Positions 9,701 through 33,491 are shown, counted from the stretch's first letter. The stretch: DNA of 64,000 nucleotides from Iphione sp. A-MEVVRFRX5 (GCA_976226885.1 OZ320318.1:68448001-68512000); one strand, 5' to 3'. The notes: generated by a model from the sequence alone, not told the origin. Program-made: numbers and translations.

Positions 9701-11180
9701 TTTAATCATACGCTGGCGCTGCAGAATATACATGGTCTAGCTTTCAAGTGGAAAACCTTCAAAAAAAAGTGGCTCAGTGTTTCACTCAAAAACTGCATTG
9801 CACGTACATGTAGTGGAACCGCCCAACGGTTGTTGCTAACACTTAGACGCAACGGATTATGATGGACAGGTGTTTAAGGGGCCTCCTCAAGCTACGGATG
9901 GTTCTAATCCTGACAGGTGGGGCCGCCTCCTAATGATGACTGAGGCGTGGGCAATTACATGCACTTTACCTGGACGAATTCGGATAGCAGGGTACGTAAC
10001 TAAGGGTTCCGGACAGGCACGACAGGTGGAAAAATGTGGGATTAAGGACCGCCCTGTAAACCAAACCCCGTTAGGTGCCAAGTCCAACAATCAGTTGCCG
10101 TGGCAACCAATGAACGGGGCGGGAACGGTCATACCTGGCCGCCTACATCAACAGTCTACCCTGTCAGCTTTCTTCAGTGACCGGTGCACCTAGCAGCATC
10201 AAAAAAGGGAAAAAAAACACTTACCGTGCACAATTGACTGCTGAGAAGGAAATATCTCTTTTTCCACTGTTATCATTTCCCCTTAACTAATAGTAGGAAT
10301 AATGCGCCATACATGCATGGATCTATATGCCGATGTCCATGCACGTCATACTGCCTACGTCCCTTATTATAGATGCCTAATGGTACCTAAACAAAACCAG
10401 CATTGGCTATACATTTCCTCCTGTGTTTATTTCAATAAGTAAGGGTTCCAACTGGCAACACTCAGCATATCCCGCAGTCACAAACTAATCTGTGTTGCAA
10501 ATGGAAGTCCCTCGCAACTTTTCAGTACTTATTAACAGAAGTGGGAGAAGAATGATACCTTTGGCAGATTGGGCCAGTAACAATACCAATGTATTTCATA
10601 AATAATTAAGAACTACTAAGTGGATTTCCATCTGCCAATATTTAAAGTTCAGTCCAGATAGCTGTACTTGTATGTAGAACATTTCCTTTTTCAAGATAGT
10701 AAATTGCTACTACTCTTTTTGAGATATAATTCCACTTGTATTTTCTTAGTACAAGAAAATAATCGTAATACGTCGTATCATTCAAAGGGTGAGCAAAAAA
10801 TTATATTCGCATTGTAGATAGAAATGGTTCTTGCGTCATGTACAAAATGACTTCTTTGTTATGATAAGAAACGCACAAAAGCAAGAAACTAAGAGGGGAA
10901 TAACTGGTTTCAGTGAGATGCGAAACTATATGTATGTGTTGGAAACGCTGACCTGTCGCACTGTAGCAAAGAACTAAAGAATCCAACATCGGCAACTTCT
11001 GCGCAGTTACCATTACTGACACCTCATTTCATATATATAAACACATGCACTCGCAATGAAACGGAACTACTGAAACCGATAATGAATATCATATATGTCA
11101 TGCAAGAGGACGTCACGGAAATATGTCTGTACGTGAGCAAACTTACTTATATTCCATTTCTACATTTTTTCAAGATATTT

Positions 11181-11603
11181 CTACGACCTGATACCTTTAT
11201 TATGTAGGTCGGCAGTTGATTTTAAACTGTTACATTCAAGTGAACCTTGCTCAGGTTTGAAATTTATCAGCTGATCTTTACCAACTGATAATTTCCTTTC
11301 TAGACAAGATAGAGACTTGTGCTTGCTATCAATAGAAAGGCCTCGACGGGACCTTTCATATGAGGTGTCATACGTCTTGATATCTATATTATGTAGGTTG
11401 GCAGTTGATTTTAAACTGCTACATTCAAGTGAACCTTGCTCAGGTTTTAAACTTATCAGCTGAACTTTACCAAGTGATAATTTCGTTTCTAAACAAGATA
11501 GAGACATGTGCTTGCTATCAATAGAAAGCCCTTGACAAGACCTTTCAGATGATGTGTTATACTTCCTGATGTCTTTAATATGTAGGTCAGCAGTGAAATA
11601 AGT
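11181..11603 (-). CDS. Hypothetical protein or exon with a 63-aa tandem repeat
   Basis: The - strand frame is open across all repeat copies (TADLHIKDIRKYNTSSERSCQGLSIDSKHMSLSCLETKLSLGKVQLISLKPEQGSLECSSLKS, then a second copy). The antisense + frame contains three TGA stops. The period is a multiple of 3. Confidence 0.45.
   Translation of the reverse strand, partial: TYFTADLHIKDIRKYNTSSERSCQGLSIDSKHMSLSCLETKLSLGKVQLISLKPEQGSLECSSLKSTANLHNIDIKTYDTSYERSRRGLSIDSKHKSLSCLERKLSVGKDQLINFKPEQGSLECNSLKSTADLHNKGIRS
11201..11592. repeat. 189-bp tandem repeat, about 2.1 copies
   Basis: TATGTAGGT anchors at 11201, 11390 and 11579; the copies align along their whole length with substitutions. Confidence 0.92.
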
Positions 11604-11881
11604 TTATGTTGAATGATACAAAGTGAACTTAAATTCTTTTTATGATAATCTATTTTATATTTGAAATAAATAATGCAGTATCTGTTTTACTAATATGATC
11701 ACAATCAATAAAGAAACATAAAGCATTTAGCATATTGTATATTTCTTTCTAGTATTGCACAACCTCACCAACATGTGACCACAGTATGTGTTAATGACAT
11801 CAGCATTATTATTAACATATTCCTGATGTTGACTAGATATAAAAAGAAGTGACATCAACAGTTAACTTAATGTTCTGCACC

Positions 11882-14011
11882 ATGGCTCAAGCTGAAGTTG
11901 ATCTATTGAGGAGACTTGTAGCCTCTTTCTCATCCGAGGAGGAACTCATCTCATGGGCTACAGAGAAGGGATTGATGAATAATCCTCTCATATTGGAGAG
12001 ACAAAATGAATTAAGGAACAATCAATTGAACAGTAATGAGGTAAGTTCCCAAAAAAAACCCACATGTTGTACTGTTCTAAAATTACCCAAGCCTCATGAC
12101 TTCACTCATAGATAATCATGTTTCATGTCATATGTATGTATATTCCAGAATTTTAAATTGCAGGTAGACCTATTGAATAATTTATTGCTGCCGACGAGTA
12201 ACACATCCCAAACACAGCAATCTTATTCTTCTGATGATGTCTGCACACCAAACACACAGGATGGTATTGTGCAATCGAAGACAGTTCAAAACACCCTACA
12301 TTCATCACCAACAGTGACGTCAGCAGCAGGGCAAGTCACCAATGCTCCATCTGAGCGCTATGTGGCTATTCCTGGGCCTAGTCATCGTCCAGTGAGTCAA
12401 ATGTGTTCTTGATGGAAATAATAATAATATTAATAATAATAGACTATATGATTCAGTATTTAGTTTTCTTTTTTGGAGGTACAACAATTCACATTTGTGT
12501 GTGTGTGTGTGTTGGTGCATGTAGACTAGATGCTGATAGTAAATATTTTGTTTCCTTGAATTCATCAACTGTGAAAACAGCCAGAAGAAGGATTGATGAG
12601 AATGCCTGAAGCAGACCATGTGCAGAGTCTATATTCACTGTCATCCTCATCATCGGAGGAGTCAGAAGAAGTAAGTTATATCTGATCCATTCGATTCCTT
12701 ACCTGTGTTCGTATAGTAGGCATACTGCAATTTTGTCTCATATACTGGAAGTATGAAGTTCCTGAAAAAAAATCAAAGTGCAACAATGATAACTTAGTTT
12801 TTCTTTTTTGTTTTACAGGTTGAAAACCAACGGAAATGTGACAAGTGTTTCAAGAAATTCAAGCGCCAAGGAAATGCAAGACGTCACAAAGAAAGCTGTC
12901 GGCAATACAAGTGTCATAAATGTACTAGGTCATTTGAAAAACCTTCACTTTTGAGAAGGCATCGTCTAAGTCACTTAGACCCCAAACTGGAAAGAGTATA
13001 TAGAGCCAATCAGCGTCACATCCTAGCCCACCACACTGAGAGAGAAATAACCACAGATTACAACTTCCCCACTAATGATCTCTCACGTGGCCCACAGGAA
13101 CTACAGCAATTTTTTGAGACAATTTTCGAAAGGGAAGACCACACCTTCAAGGTGAATATGTCGTTTGGTATGATATTGTATAATGTGCAGACAGGTGAAT
13201 ATCGTTATTTCATCCCCTATAGTAACAGTATGGTATTTAACGAGTCCATAGTGGTTTCCCAGGCAAGCGACCTGTCTGAGGTAATGGATAGCATCAGAGC
13301 AGTCAACCCCAAGAATTACTTCATCTGGAACCGACCAGACACTAAATGGCAGGTAGCTATGATAACTAATGTCGTATTTTTCATTATGCGGACCACATAT
13401 CTGATGGGGCGAGGGTTCTTTCCCAATTTCATGAGAAATAAACAATGTATTACTTCCTTAGATGACCATAACGATGCTCTTTGCGCCTTTAGATGTCTCG
13501 CCATATGCCATCAAGAAAACGACGTAGAAGGAGCCGTGAAAGAGTACTGTTCGTTGTGGTGTCAATTCCAATCAAATCAAGAAAACCACACGCTGCCTCA
13601 TGACCTGAGTCAATCTTGAGGTGTCGACCTGCGCGACTTGACCCTCTTTGAGGAATGTTTCCAGGTCAGTATATATGTATACGAGTTGAAGATGAATGGA
13701 AGCATATCCGTAATTCGGAAACCCTTTGCTTGTTTTCCCGATACTATGCACCTCAACCTTCATGCCAGTCACCTCTCCTATGTCAGTGACTTCAAGAACT
13801 ATGCCAAGAAGTTTCAGTGCCGTCTCTGCCGGCGTTGTTTCGGTAAGAGACATCATTTCACCAGACACTCCAAAGTATGTCCCCTAAGAACACGCTATGT
13901 GTACCGAGGGGGATATTACAACAGTCCTTCAACCATATTCGATGATCTTGAAGGACTGGGAATAGTTGTTCCACATGAGGAACGGATGTACAAAGATTTT
14001 GCTGTGTTCGA
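11882..14011 (+). pseudogene. Spliced Maverick-type protein-primed DNA polymerase B gene, N-terminal part only (zinc fingers plus pre-exonuclease region), truncated
   Basis: Exons 11882-12040, 12164-12391, 12581-12670 and 12819 onward, all joined by phase-0 GT-AG introns. Exon 4 encodes CDKC-x12-H-x3-C and CHKC-x12-H-x3-H fingers, then FKVNMSFGMIL...RPDTKWQVAMITNV...DALCAFRCLA, an in-frame TGA at 13617, GVDLRDLTLFEECF...HLSYV...CRLC-x12-H-x3-C...GGYY, and ends at FAVFD (start of Exo-I). These motifs match my recollection of animal Polinton pPolB N-termini. Confidence 0.8.
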
Positions 14012-15300
14012 CTGGACCTGTTCCATGTGCCCCCGTCTCAGACGGGTATAACTGAAGAGTATATTAAGGAGTATTCACCCACCGGGGAAATATCTGGAGA
14101 CGGGGTCTTGGAGTTCCATGTATCCAATGGTTCCTTAGATTACATCAGGATGAATAAAATCAGAATGATGGTGGAACTGCAGATCCATGACGACACGGGA
14201 AAGAAGATCAAGGCCGTGGATGACGTCGCCTTCATCAACATGATACCTGCCACAATGTTTCGACAAATGGAACTCTCTCTTCAACAGATGGTGGTCAGCT
14301 TGAGCATTAGAGCAAATTACCCCTACAAGTGCATGATCGATACTCTGCTCAGGACTGGTGTGGCCGACAAGCTGGGATGGATGAGTGTGGCTGGATTGGC
14401 AAAGGACATTGCAGGGAAAATGGACGATGTGAGTGGACTGAAGTTGGCCTACACCTCTAGAAGACAGAAAACGAGAGAAGGGAAGACCGCTCAGTTGATG
14501 ACACGCCTTTTCCTGGGTGTCACCGATTAGAAGAGACTGCTACTTAATGGTGTCAGTCTGAACCTGAAACTCTTCCAATCACCAGAAGACTTCAAACTGA
14601 TGTACCCAAGTCTCACCACTTATGACACTGCAGAGAGTCCACAGGCCAGGACTTCAAAAACCTACCACTTGAAACTGACGAAGGCAGTCTGGAGAGTGCC
14701 TTTCGTGAGGATACACGAGAGCATCATCCTTGCTCGAGAAGGGTCCGGCCATCTATCCTTTCAAATGGACCGACATTCGCGGTTTCACCGTCGCCTCTAG
14801 CAGCTACGAGTTCTCCGGAGAGAACATATTCCAAGACCGAGTCCCCGAATGCCTTGTGGTGGCACTAGTTGATGCGGCGGCATATGCCGGGAATGCACAG
14901 AAGAACCCCTTCAACTTTGATCCGTACTCGGTGAACTATGCCACGTTCGAGGTGAATGGAGTGTCCAGGCCTGGTCGCCCCTTCCAGCCCAAGTTTTCCG
15001 AAGGGCACATAGCCTCGCTCTTCACTGCCCTCTTCGACGCTTTACCTTCCTGGCATCAAGGCGAGCTACCGGCCATCACCGAGGATGACTTCAAGGCAGG
15101 ATAAGCCTTCTTTATTTTCAACCTGAACCAGGAAAGAGAAGAAGAGCTAGCCTCTCCTCTGAAACGAGACTGACCAGAACACCAGACTGATCATTAAATT
15201 TGAAACGGCCCTATCGTCTGCTGTCACCGTACTAACCTGTGGTCAGTTCCCGGCTGTGATGAGTATAGACCTGCATCATAATGTCTCGCTCGTCATCTAG
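14012..15300 (+). pseudogene. Polinton/adintovirus major capsid protein (double jelly-roll, hexon-like), N-terminus clipped
   Basis: LDLFHVPPSQT...EYSP...LEFHV...NYPYK...D*KRLLLNGVSLNLKL...AIYPF...FQDRVPECLVVALVD...YAGNAQKNPFNF...VNG...P(F)QPKF...G*AFFIFNL...RLIIKFETAL...SIDLHHNV. About 430 codons, with stops at 14528 and 15102 and frameshifts near 14733 and 15175. Confidence 0.92.
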
Positions 15301-15320
15301 TTCCCCTTTCAGAGGCCGAG

Positions 15321-15761
15321 ATGCATAGATACCTTAAGAATAATCCTTTCTATGTCAGAACAGACTCTTACCAGAACCTGCCCTCGCACCACGTCTCAGA
15401 CAAAGATCGACCTGCCTTCTATGTCATCAATACGGACAAAGTATGCTCACCAGGTCTTCACTGGGTGGTCATCTATCTGCTTCCTAACGATAGACCATGT
15501 GAATTTTTCAATTCTTTAGGGTGTACACCTGAGCATTATCCAGCACGTGTTAGAAATTTTCTCCTAGCTAATTGTAATGCCAATACTAGATTATAAGGAA
15601 CTCAACCTTTATGTGGTTATTACTGTATAGATTACATTAGGGAAAGTACGAGGGGTGTATCTTTCCTGCACTATATGGAAAGTTTGGTCTATCGTTATAA
15701 GAGCTACCTAAGCAATGATCGTCTCGTGGTTTCAAGAGTGCACAACCCATTCATACCATGA
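15321..15761 (+). pseudogene. Adenain-type (clan CE) cysteine maturation protease
   Basis: YVINTD...PGLHWV (catalytic His), CEFFNSLG (N at the usual acidic position), RL*GTQPLCGYYC (TAA at the expected oxyanion Gln, catalytic Cys). The same frame continues to TGA at 15759-15761. AATAAA at 15935. Confidence 0.9.
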
Positions 15762-15967
15762 TTTCGTACAGTTCTTGATTGACGATTTCTTCCCTCTCAT
15801 GTGAAGAGTCTTGCACATGTATGTCTTGCAGTCTGATTCCCTGCTAATGAGAAACCAAAAAGTTGTATACTATCTATCATGCCTTGATATGTACATGTAC
15901 ATGTATTATTCCAAGGAGAGTGAGGAAAAATGAAAATAAAAATGTCTCTTAATCACTTGTTCTCTGT

Positions 15968-16288
15968 CTGATTTGTTTATATCAGTATAGGTTAGAAGAA
16001 GAAAGAAAAAAATTATATAATACTCACCTGTAGGACCTCTTCACTTCTGGAGGATAATGATCATCTTCTATTTCTTCTTCTTATTACTATGACAATCATC
16101 ACTGAGACCAAGAAAACAATAAGGCCAAGGAGAATGCAACTAACAATAATCCAAGTTGAAGTGATTGAGGTATTTGTGGTGTCAGTGTGTTCTGTCACTG
16201 TTGAAATAGTAGGAGAGTAGGTACTATCATTCACGGTTGGTATATCAGTCCATTGGGTGTGCTGATTCCTACTTTGTTATAAAAGCAT
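15968..16288 (-). pseudogene. Type-I membrane glycoprotein-like gene (Thr/Ser stalk, TM helix, basic stop-transfer), spliced
   Basis: 16288 to 16028 reads MLL*QSRNQHTQWTDIPTVNDSTYSPTISTVTEHTDTTNTSITSTWIIVSCILLGLIVFLVSVMIVIVIRRRNRR*SLSSRSEEVLQ, then a GTGAGT donor at 16027. A candidate 60-bp intron (16027-15968) contains CTAAC and ends in CAG. Confidence 0.7.
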
Positions 16289-16322
16289 GCTTATATTCCT
16301 GTTGAACCATTTCTTTTTGTAA

Positions 16323-16342
16323 ATATATATATATATATATAT
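16323..16342. repeat. (TA)n microsatellite
   Basis: Direct reading. Confidence 0.95.
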
Positions 16343-17049
16343 GCAACCAAAAACTTCATCCAGGTGATGATTTGGTCAAGTATAGATCACCTCTCTTTTT
16401 TTTTATTGAAGATGATATACTCAGGATGTTATAGTGGCACACATTATACTATACTGGCAGATGAGGATTGAGTGTCAGCTACATATAGATTTACCCTAAA
16501 GGTTCCGTTTTTTTTTTTCTGATAACAGTATTGATGTTTCTATACTGCACTATATTATAACAAATGGGTGATGATTACTCGATATATCCATCTATATAAG
16601 GACGTTTTGTATTACATATCATTCTATTATATATACAGGCAATGATTGTTATGCATGTAGTCTTTGGGTGAAGAAGAGAGTCGATTTGAAGAAGTGTTAG
16701 GATACAGATCATCATTTTATTTAAAATCAGATAGAACAACACCGGTTACTCATCATTCAACATGTTGAGGAGTTAATGTGATGGACACCATAGTCGTGAT
16801 TGAGTTTTAAAAAAAACCAAAGTAGGTCAAAAATTCATTTTCATAAAAGATATTTATTTACGTCTTCTATTGTTACATGTTGTGATTTTCTTTCCTAGTT
16901 ATCGAAGAAATAGTATTCTATTGTAATAGAGACAAATTACAACTTAATCAATACATAAACTACTACTACTATTTCTTCTAATACTGTTGCTAATACAGAA
17001 AAATAACCATTTGAAATGCAATCATCCCTTCGTCCAATGAAAGTACTTT

Positions 17050-18300
17050 GGGTTTTTTTTATGCAGCTGCTTCAATCAAAGAATTATCAAATCTGAGCCA
17101 ACAGGGCAAACTTGTACTCAAAATGATACAAGTGGTAGAGCTCTGTGTCAACCTCCCCATTCTTAATGACATGTCCACAGTACACGGGATCGACTTTACT
17201 AGCGTGGTCTTTCTCATTAAAGTCTCACAAGCATTCAATTGTAGGAGGTGAAATGTTGGTCTTGTTACTCCACTCCAGAAGATTGATCATCAACTGGCTG
17301 GCCTCCACAAGTCATTGGAAGCTGATGCGCATGTGGGCAGCATGCAGTACATCACTCCGGGCATGCTCAGGGATACGACATGGTGAGCCTCCATCATCAT
17401 TCTCTAAGCCGCCAAGTCCCCTTGCTTTCATCAAGTTGTGATATTCTGTGGCAAGAAGAAACACATACATCTTCTGGATGACTTCATGCATTGAAATGGT
17501 ATTAGCAGGAAAAGGAACGTACTTGATATTCTCTCCATCAACAAGTTCTTTTTGGGCAGTGACTTCACACATCAGCTGATTAATGAAGATGTTCTTGGAC
17601 CGATGGGTGAATTGGCTTCCATCTGCTTTCGCTCTCACCATATTGTATGTTCTCCTCAGTAGAGGGAAACAAACCTCCTTCTTGGTGTGCTCACGCTCTC
17701 GCTCAGCCAGAGCAAGGAATGAATTGCTTGAGTCTATTGGATGCCTCTTCATATAATCCAGTATACCTTCCACTTCGTGGATCAGGAGGTTGAAGCAGTC
17801 ATAGCTAGAAAGCAGAGATAGTAAACAGGAATATAATACTCTATTTACAAGTACATGTAAACATTAAATGCAAAAATCGAGATTGAATGCATCACAGACA
17901 TTTGTATACATTCATGGATTTCACAAGGAACATAATGGGTAATGGTTAATCAGTGAATATAATTTATGAAGAAAAAACACTTACTTGATTCTTTGAGCTC
18001 CTTCGTCAATCCGTTCGAAACACACATATGTCCTGCTGGCAAAGTCAGCCAGCTCAATGTGGTAGGTCTTTTCTTCAGATTTGACAGTGAGCACATGTCC
18101 ACAAAGAAGACTGTCCCAGTCATTGCCAGCTGTGTCAATTACCTCATGACGGACAAAGAGATGATGAGCAGCTTTCCCTATTCTCCGGATTTACAGATGA
18201 AAATGCAAACCACCATCGGTGACACGAACTCGCTCGGATATGGTCTCCATGGCTGCAGAGCTATAGTGGATGATCCAACAACGTGACAGTAAGGGGTTCT
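17050..18300 (-). pseudogene. Two-exon pseudogene of unknown function (right arm of the element)
   Basis: Exon ...METISERVRV...WDSLLCGHVLTVKSEEKTYHIELADF...GAQRI(N) splices in phase (AA|C) over a 180-bp intron (GTAAGT at 17984, polypyrimidine-TAG at 17805) to YDCFNLLIHEVEGILDYMKRHP...HMRISFQ*LVEASQ...ECL*DFNEKDHASKVDPVYCGHVIKNGEVDTELYHLYHFEYKF. Four in-frame stops before the end. Confidence 0.7.
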
Positions 18301-20699
18301 TATATACACAGTGGTATGACGTAGGCAGTCAGCCTACCTAATCTGAAAAAAAGAATCCTTTCTTTCAGTGTTATCTTGTCCCATAATGCAAATGTAACGT
18401 GTCTGAACACGTCTAGATTGTTATCATCTACACCATTCTTCTTATCTTATCTAATGAACCACTAGAAACTAGTAGACTGATCTGACATCAGCTTTGACAT
18501 ATCTATGTAGCGAATGAGTTTGAACATGTGTGGACAGATACCACCACAGGCAAACAGGTCTGAACACACACTGACAAAAAATGCACAAGATTAACAGTGG
18601 AAATGCTTCCATACCTGATTTCAGTATTCTATTAATTTCATCCTCATATTTCACATTCCATCTAGTGAGATGACACAAGGGTGATAAACTGTACCCTTGG
18701 TTGGTTGCACGGTCACCTTAAGATATAGTTACACAGTAGATACTTATTGCAACTAATATATTCATTGGTTTGGTGGGGTCATATATTTATGTTTACTTCT
18801 ATATGTATTAAAGTAACAGATCTACATACATAAACTCCTTTCGCTTGGTATTGCATCATATACATGTTCATACTTGTTACCACCACTGCGACAGATCAGT
18901 GCTGATGTCATTGGTTGGGATTCCTCATGCAAGGTCAAGTGGAAAATGGAAACTCAAGTGCTTCAAGGAAACTCAAGTGGTTTGCACCCAGATAACCTTT
19001 TTGCACTAAAGGGGGTCTAGGGCAGTTACCTTCATACACTACTCTTAGTGTACTGTTATTTCCGCCCTGGGTTAGATCCTTGATGCGCACATGTTGTTGC
19101 TAGCTGTCTGTCTTTGATGCTGCTCTCAGATACATGTATATCAGATAGGCTTAATTTCCGTACACGTGTTGTTTTCATGGCCATGCCAACGTATTTCCAG
19201 CATGGTTTTTGGTAACTGTGAACAAGAAAAGGAGTGTTTCCTGAGCGCATGTACTATGTAGTGTGTTTTCACAATCACTATTTTCAGATTGGGAAACTTC
19301 ACAGTTTCTACAGTTGAGTATGTTTTCAGTATTGTGAACTTTTCCAAGCAGGCCATGGTGGTAAAACATACATATGGAAATGACGCCTTATTGGAAATGC
19401 TCATTTACATATGATATTATCTTCATTACACATGCAAAAAGCGGGAAAGGCTGTTACTTGGCAGTATATATTACTAGCCGACGTACGTACATAAATGGGA
19501 ACAAGGTTTATGCCCCGCAGTTTCCCTATTCTGGGTTATGACACACTGTGAGCAGGAACGCCATTAATGGCCCACCAGATCACATGCATGTTTGCTAGGA
19601 CCAGTCGCCCCTTTGGTCGCCCATCCATGTTTGTGGCTCTCATCACGAGTGATTGATTACAAACATGGCGTGTGTGTTTGGAGTCTTTGTGAGTGCGTGT
19701 GTGTCTGTGTCTGTGTGGTTTTCTACAACACTGCGGTCTGCAAAAGAAAAAAAACGACGCCAGCGCCAGCGGCGGATTATGACAGCGCATGCCCCGCGGC
19801 CATCTCGGTCAATGAGCCCCGTTAGCAACGAGTGGGCCAAACTGCTCTAACCCATTGACCAGACCGCAGATGGCTTGCCGTGCACGGTATCGCCGAGTTG
19901 CTCTGTTGGTTCTCGCCCTAGACCAGCATGGAATGAGGTTGAGGAATTTTAGCAACGTGGTCAATAAGGACAAGCTCGAAATGGAACAGGGATGAAATAG
20001 GGTTAGGAACGTGGATGGGTACCGGGCCCAACATTGCCTGTGTACATATCATTATTCTTAATGTTCAAACTCGATCTGCGTAACCTGTTGAACTTTATGT
20101 ATTGCTTTGGTTCTATTCGGCCAGTGCTGTTTATCGTTTAAGGTAATCAGGGCCTGTATATCGATGCCCTGGTCACACACTTTCTATGAGTTAGTCACAA
20201 TGCATTCGGAAACTGCGTGTGCTAAATTGGCGAGGAGTGGTTCTCCAGTTGCAGTGCCCACATCTGGACACAGCGGGATAGAAATATATTGAAGGGGAAA
20301 TTGTGTCACATATAAGTTTTTTTTTTTATATTAGCGAAGAGAGGACTAGACTGAATGGCAGCAGGTGGTCTTAGGAGGCAGCACTGGATAGAAACCATTA
20401 CCGACTGGTCAGTACACAGAGACTTCGGTAATTGGCAGGTAAAAATAAGACAAGTCCACACGTGGCACGACCGGAGCGCTACACAGTCAACAGCTGGGAC
20501 ATACCTGATAGCTTAAAATATACGCTCGATCCTCTTCAGACGTTATTGTCTTTGTTATATTACTGTATTTTGAAAATAGTATCGGAAGCACACCTACTGT
20601 TTTAAACTGGACGTTGCATAGCATTACACTTTTCATACATATAAGTGCGATACTGAGAGCTACAGACACATTGAAATGTTTATTTGAGAGGCAAAGGGA

Positions 20700-33355: not shown

Positions 33356-33491
33356 NNNNNNNNNNNNNNNNNNNNNNNNNNNNNNNNNNNNNNNNNNNNN
33401 NNNNNNNNNNNNNNNNNNNNNNNNNNNNNNNNNNNNNNNNNNNNNNNNNNNNNNNNNNNNNNNNNNNNNNNNNNNNNNNNNNNNNNNNNNN
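33356..33491. other. Assembly gap (136 N)
   Basis: Run of N. Confidence 1.

Follow-up and report, generated by a model that had tools for sequence, protein, structure and literature searches.

The window analysed here, a stretch of 64,000 nucleotides from the genome of Iphione sp. A-MEVVRFRX5 (GCA_976226885.1, OZ320318.1:68448001-68512000), contains at 11179-19043 (+ strand) a dead, internally deleted and truncated Maverick/Polinton copy of subfamily B. It is very probably the broken form of an integrase-bearing element of which complete relatives are present in the same genome. Judged by the splice signals, the polymerase leader and the accessory genes of this element are likely to be spliced by the host.

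The assignment to subfamily B was based on blastn blocks against complete B copies. The identity was 91-97% by block, with 82% in one block of one copy. Comparison with complete copies showed that the right end is formed by a terminal inverted repeat (TIR) of 71 bp (18973-19043), ending in ACTACT. Since the element ends with this TIR at 19043, the region 19044-19404 lies outside it, and the right boundary of 19404 proposed in the initial annotation had to be moved inwards. The left end breaks off at approximately 11179, inside a non-coding subterminal tandem repeat (11182-11594) of 2.2 units of 189 bp. A left TIR was found neither in the window nor in the 10 kb upstream of it, and these 10 kb contained no element DNA. 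Further to the right, 33356-33491 of the window is a run of 136 N.

Positions 14012-14014 (+ strand) form the junction of a deletion of approximately 7 kb, visible as a blastn gap from 10990 to 18006 in a B copy. Read from the gene order of complete copies, the deletion comprises the rest of pPolB, the ATPase, a PZ-like and one more small ORF, the rve/chromo integrase, the minor capsid, the core protein and the start of the major capsid protein (MCP). Divergence of the window copy from two B copies amounted to 4.6%; of approximately 220 transitions, 84-87 were located at CpG. Stops or frameshifts were present in pPolB, MCP, protease, TM1 and X. The dN/dS ratio was 0.16-1.0 for the window versus B and 0.10-0.19 for A versus B. 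Purifying selection thus acts between subfamilies A and B; the copy in the window is inactive and in decay.

In the host genome (1.18 Gb), the MCP piece identified 1082 candidate loci, and all 150 that were scored matched. Full-length copies with TIRs, integrase, ATPase and minor capsid, for which a search had been proposed, were indeed found. As a sample of family A, 6 of the closest long copies were taken. All 6 measured 23.4-23.9 kb and had 71 bp TIRs, AGTAGT/ACTACT ends and target site duplications (TSDs) of 6 bp without mismatch. They differed by 0.25-1.3%, and 5 of them had no stop in the 12 ORFs tested. The gene order is: a SOCS-box-like gene, pPolB (with zinc finger, VSR-like motif and NADAR), ATPase, two small ORFs, rve-chromo integrase, minor capsid, basic core protein, MCP, protease, TM1 (- strand), TM2, a small ORF, X (- strand) and Y (- strand). 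The names minor capsid, core and PZ-like are putative and were given by size and position, following the Maverick literature. The gene of the left arm (L037:9060-9959) matches the SOCS box weakly (E 0.008, below cut-off), is a distant paralogue of gene Y and ends in a donor-like site in 5/5 families checked. TM2 (L039:3663-4850) is a second predicted membrane protein, divergent from TM1.

Pfam matches in a complete copy were rve (PF00665, E 1e-8), chromo (PF00385, E 2e-8) and C2H2, as well as Pox_A32 (E 0.008) and Peptidase_C5 (E 0.003), the latter two below the curated cut-offs and at the expected positions. Neither its MCP, a putative double jelly-roll protein, nor its minor capsid had a Pfam match; both identities are tentative and were derived from size, position and homology to Haliotis proteins. 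ATPase, integrase, capsids and protease each occupy a single ORF. The main ORF of pPolB in complete copies is 1660 aa long and has 1317 relatives at E≤1e-20, many of them with PF03175; a NADAR domain (E 1.8e-11) is fused to its C-terminus, a feature shared by the nearest outside relatives. Copies of subfamily B are 15.6-17 kb, with both ends and a TSD in 3 of 5 B-type stretches; they contain the 189 bp subterminal tandem but neither the left gene nor TM2 nor the ectodomain of TM1. One B-type copy (L059-L060) has its left end in inverted orientation, fused to the right arm. Families C-G, I-K and M have MCPs 44-77% identical to that of A and the same layout as A. In a copy of family K, pPolB is interrupted by approximately 11 kb with long ORFs resembling an LTR retrotransposon (L123-L124).

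The element is an integrase-bearing Maverick, and the label Polinton-like virus given to it in the initial annotation does not apply. The suggestion that it is the relic of an undescribed lineage of spliced polintoviruses was right as to the Polinton type and, very probably, the spliced genes. The lineage is not a lost one: the window holds one decayed copy from a group that is large, has been spreading recently and includes complete copies differing by 0.25-1.3%.

As annotated initially, the 5' part of pPolB, MCP and an adenain-type protease are located on the + strand and converge on an arm on the - strand. Exon 1 of pPolB (11882-12040, 53 codons), with a TATA-like box upstream, is predicted to encode a helical N-terminal module. 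It is followed by intron 1 (12041-12163, 123 bp), exon 2 (12164-12391, 76 codons, low complexity), intron 2 (12392-12580, 189 bp), exon 3 (12581-12670, 30 codons) and intron 3 (12671-12818, 148 bp). The main exon (12819-14014) is broken: it comprises the C2H2 finger and the N-terminal part, misses approximately 255 bp near 12975, has one stop and contains no catalytic part. MCP (14012-15300, with frameshifts and stops) and protease (15282-15761; Pfam Peptidase_C5, E 0.0055, below the curated cut-off) are broken as well.

The introns of 123, 189 and 148 bp had been predicted, and all three hold: they are GT-AG introns in phase 0 between open exons. In 7 chains, 23/23 leader introns were GT-AG and phase 0 with in-frame stops inside, a count that is partly circular because all introns were placed by hand. 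Exon 1 had 53 codons followed by GAG|GTAAG in 7/7 chains, and 54 codons in families F and J. Between A and B exon 1 was 94% identical without gaps, and the leader introns were 48-69% identical with 6-11 gaps. An exon 1 profile matched the N-termini of 11 of the 120 outside pPolBs listed (E<1e-4; best E of the reversed control 2.5). No match to this profile was obtained in families I, K, M and H. Other candidate leader exons are present in I and M, and the stretch examined for family K does not reach the start of pPolB. There are four leader introns in families A and D and three in B, C, E and G, which points to intron gain or loss between close subfamilies.

Instead of being part of pPolB, the leader exons could form a separate small spliced gene, with pPolB translated from its own unspliced start. 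Such an arrangement would fit the low complexity and poor conservation of exons 2 and 3, the ATG with which the main exon begins in families E and M, and the annotation of the nearest outside pPolBs as starting near the zinc finger. However, in the window and in families A-D and G the main exon opens after the acceptor, without an ATG before the zinc finger. Moreover, the exon 1 module is fused to pPolB in the 11 outside proteins, and every leader intron is in phase 0. We regard a separate gene as highly improbable, and a pPolB leader spliced by the host as likely.

Gene X on the - strand has a first coding exon (17985-18250, one stop), an intron of 180 bp (17805-17984, phase 2, GT-AG) and a second coding exon (17087-17804, 238 codons, two stops). 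This intron, also predicted in the initial annotation, was recovered at the same site and in the same phase in 26 of 29 loci, consisting of the window, 8 loci from fetched copies and 20 chosen for diversity from the X matches. AA|GTRAG followed the same residue in these 26 loci and AG preceded the same motif in 29/29; the remaining 3 had no donor. The lengths of the intron ranged from 94 to 278 nt and fell in all three classes modulo 3; the background frequency of GTRAG was 0.0016 per site.

A profile search gave 34 outside relatives of X, 4 of which carry both exon profiles in one ORF. In one of these (P0030) the two profiles abut in exact register, with only the split codon between them. These two-exon proteins may be derived from intronless genes or from cDNA; either way they place the join. 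Many of the outside relatives are without the PC4-like half. A single-sequence search with the second exon retrieved nothing, an Atlas search with it gave only unnamed clusters with low recognition, and viral contigs scanned with the X alignment and with MCP showed no confirmed locus. Because the intron signals of pPolB and X are conserved across related families, the element likely needs host splicing. TATA-like boxes and TGACGTCA-like motifs were seen repeatedly upstream of the start codons of pPolB and X in several families.

The initial annotation had named a failure of the arm genes to neighbour other copies of MCP as grounds for regarding the arm as separate. By comparing two match lists by hand, we found X at no more than 9 kb from MCP, on the opposite strand, in 21 of the 23 MCP rows with at least 88% identity. 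In the other two, X was 34 kb away and absent, respectively. Alternatively, the arm could consist of host genes, or of separate insertions, next to the relic of a Maverick. This proposal could appeal to the host-type introns of the arm genes and to the intron-bearing captured cargo reported for nematode Mavericks (10.1101/2022.07.12.499685). Yet the arm genes are inside the TIRs of every complete copy and diverge in step with the core, which makes the proposal extremely improbable. Separate insertion of the arm genes is refuted; for TM1 or X an ancient host origin is conceivable. Linkage and complete copies both confirm that the arm travels with the core of a Polinton-type element.

The membrane glycoprotein-like gene of the initial annotation is a transmembrane gene on the - strand, of which the window retains only a C-terminal remnant. 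This remnant of TM1 (16028-16276) encodes the end of a Ser/Thr stalk, a transmembrane helix and a basic tail with a stop; the ectodomain is absent. The 60 bp intron assumed here could not be upheld. Its donor at 16027 is real and conserved, but the acceptor has 6/15 pyrimidines and yields a tail of 4 residues. Acceptors at 184 and 187 bp have 12/15 and 10/15 pyrimidines and open an exon of 29-30 codons that is conserved in other families. The intron is better read as one of 184 bp (15844-16027) or 187 bp. The likely last exon (15751-15843) would encode a cytoplasmic tail with a YExxV-type motif; similar exons are present in A, B, C, E and G, and those of C, E and G resemble the exon behind the 184/187 bp intron. 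The likely function of TM1 is modulation of the host cell, as a mucin-stalked surface protein.

The ORF with 63-aa repeats noted on the left in the initial annotation proved not to be a gene. The longest open frame was at most 69 aa in 3/3 close complete B copies, and the ORF of 140 aa in the window is incidental. The 189 bp tandem itself was confirmed and its number of units varies between copies. At the other end, 18484-18660 (- strand) is a 3' fragment of gene Y, a distant paralogue of the SOCS-box-like left-arm gene of family A. The Cys-rich tail of Y was considered as a RING finger; this was rejected because the tail follows a donor-like site (A, B and G) and is absent from the ORFs of other families.

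In the model of the first exon of X (pLDDT 92), a strand-rich unit with a helix precedes the strands of a second unit, whose completing helix is predicted where exon 2 begins. The best fold matches were PUR-alpha (Z 5.2, 88/89 aligned, rmsd 4.2) and PC4 (Z 4.5), below the trust level of the tool, and several more members of the family were among the fold hits. Foldseek gave a probability of 0.98 (E 0.14), and Atlas ranked a PC4 cluster first for an X relative (score 0.77). X itself had no Pfam PC4 match, and no significant PDB sequence match was obtained with either X exon or with the VSR region. Exon 2 gave only partial fold matches (best Z 7.0 over 48 residues), none of which was convincing. 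From these models, the first exon quite probably has a tandem PC4/PUR-like fold. With less assurance, we favour a role of X as a single-stranded-DNA-binding protein (SSB) for strand-displacement replication.

It is possible, though we consider it the less probable role, that X is a transcription regulator or a host-modulating 'Oncoid'-like accessory protein. PC4 and PUR proteins also function in transcription, the PC4-like half is missing from many X relatives, and a CxGC..H..C motif is present in outside relatives and in families F and J. Accessory genes with zinc motifs have been described for adintoviruses (PMC8502044, in section 3.2). Against a regulator, X is under purifying selection and adjoins the core in all nine MCP-bearing families that were covered in full for this lineage (A-G, I-K and M, counted as fetched). 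In addition, a protein-primed replicon is expected to require an SSB, the role that we prefer for X.

A second, distant Maverick lineage, with approximately 19 kb between TIRs and approximately 30 PC4 matches genome-wide (L113-L115), has an intronless gene with PC4 and a Cys motif (L108:1123-2502) beside the ATPase, and pPolB on the opposite strand. The C-terminal Cys motif of this Pfam-positive PC4 protein aligned to outside X relatives (probability 84.5, E 6.9e-6); hhalign of the first exon of X against the PC4 gene was not significant.

By analogy with known Maverick biology, a complete element would be copied as linear DNA by its own protein-primed polymerase and inserted by its own rve integrase, and may be packaged by the ATPase, capsids and protease. 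Through host RNA polymerase II and the spliceosome, the main exon of pPolB would be joined to 3-4 short leader exons, and the two exons of X to each other. ATPase, integrase, capsids and protease would be expressed from unspliced single frames. More speculatively, the elements could represent an undescribed clade of animal polintoviruses with an adenovirus-like programme of spliced early genes and an unspliced structural cassette, with at least 10 families mobile or recently mobile in one genome. The early genes would then be the pPolB leader, a PUR/PC4-fold ssDNA-binding protein replacing the adenovirus DBP, and surface proteins. Introns kept in a core replication gene would imply a long dependence on nuclear transcription and splicing, and this bears on the origin of adenoviruses from polintons. 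Since one genome offers numerous young complete copies along with a candidate SSB, Maverick gene expression becomes accessible to ordinary RNA sequencing.

Among known systems, vertebrate Mavericks (PMC8097293) share with the elements described here pPolB, ATPase, integrase, minor and major capsid (putative here), protease and accessory regions, as well as TIRs, a 6 bp TSD, 5'-(AGT)2//(ACT)2-3' ends and a size of 12.7-24.6 kb. Their intact copies are reported without introns and, in most, with two core modules on opposite strands. Here, in contrast, a single strand carries the core, and splice signals are conserved in pPolB, X and TM1; the predicted leader introns of pPolB set the elements apart from the intronless core. 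In surveys, a Maverick counts as intact if its ORFs lack introns (PMC8097293); spliced lineages would therefore be mis-annotated, stripped of the pPolB N-terminus or missed. For Polintons with pPolB2 of molluscs and a marine nematode (10.1101/2023.08.22.554363) a VSR insertion is reported, and the elements here have a putative VSR-like motif inside pPolB; they differ in that the elements here have a C-terminal NADAR and that the accessible text mentions no spliced leader.

Adintoviruses, including their definition and TP-vOTU architecture (PMC8502044; 10.1101/2024.03.25.586562; PMC11161782), are likewise animal-associated and have an rve integrase with chromodomain, adenain and small accessory genes. 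By description, the accessible parts of PMC8502044 and 10.1101/2024.03.25.586562 contain no PC4, SOCS, VSR or glycoprotein terms, and splicing is not mentioned in that of PMC8502044, section 3.2 included. Nematode Mavericks (10.1101/2022.07.12.499685) have intron-bearing genes inside the TIRs and a type I membrane protein too. However, their introns are in the cargo, the core being intronless, and their fusogen is gB-like; here a core gene is spliced, in all likelihood, and TM1 and TM2 are predicted to be short mucin-stalked proteins. Introns are also present inside dinoflagellate eupolintovirus-like elements (PMC12166617), where the introners are young transposon insertions; the intron positions here are old and conserved, with divergent intron sequences. 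Group I introns have been reported in Polinton-like viruses (PMC12220804). The portions consulted of PMC11296320, PMC11131425, PMC5803895 and PMC6431247 contained nothing relevant. In the literature searched, we found no description of the gene set of pPolB, MCP and protease with TM1 and X and no account of spliceosomal introns in core genes of animal Mavericks; Repbase and supplements could hold multi-exon Polintons.

The best named relative of the MCP of a complete copy was from Haliotis (33% identical), and the named pPolB relatives among the matches listed were from molluscs, sea cucumber and lancelet. For a FastTree of pPolB with midpoint rooting, 8 of our own sequences were combined with 38 of the 120 outside ones listed (46 in total). 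Our families fall into one clade there (0.83); the proteins that it joins (1.0) are four unnamed ones, and the named proteins lie apart. A putative VSR motif was seen inside pPolB; it was present in 9/9 tblastn rows and in 102 of the 120 relatives listed, one of which is named very-short-patch endonuclease.
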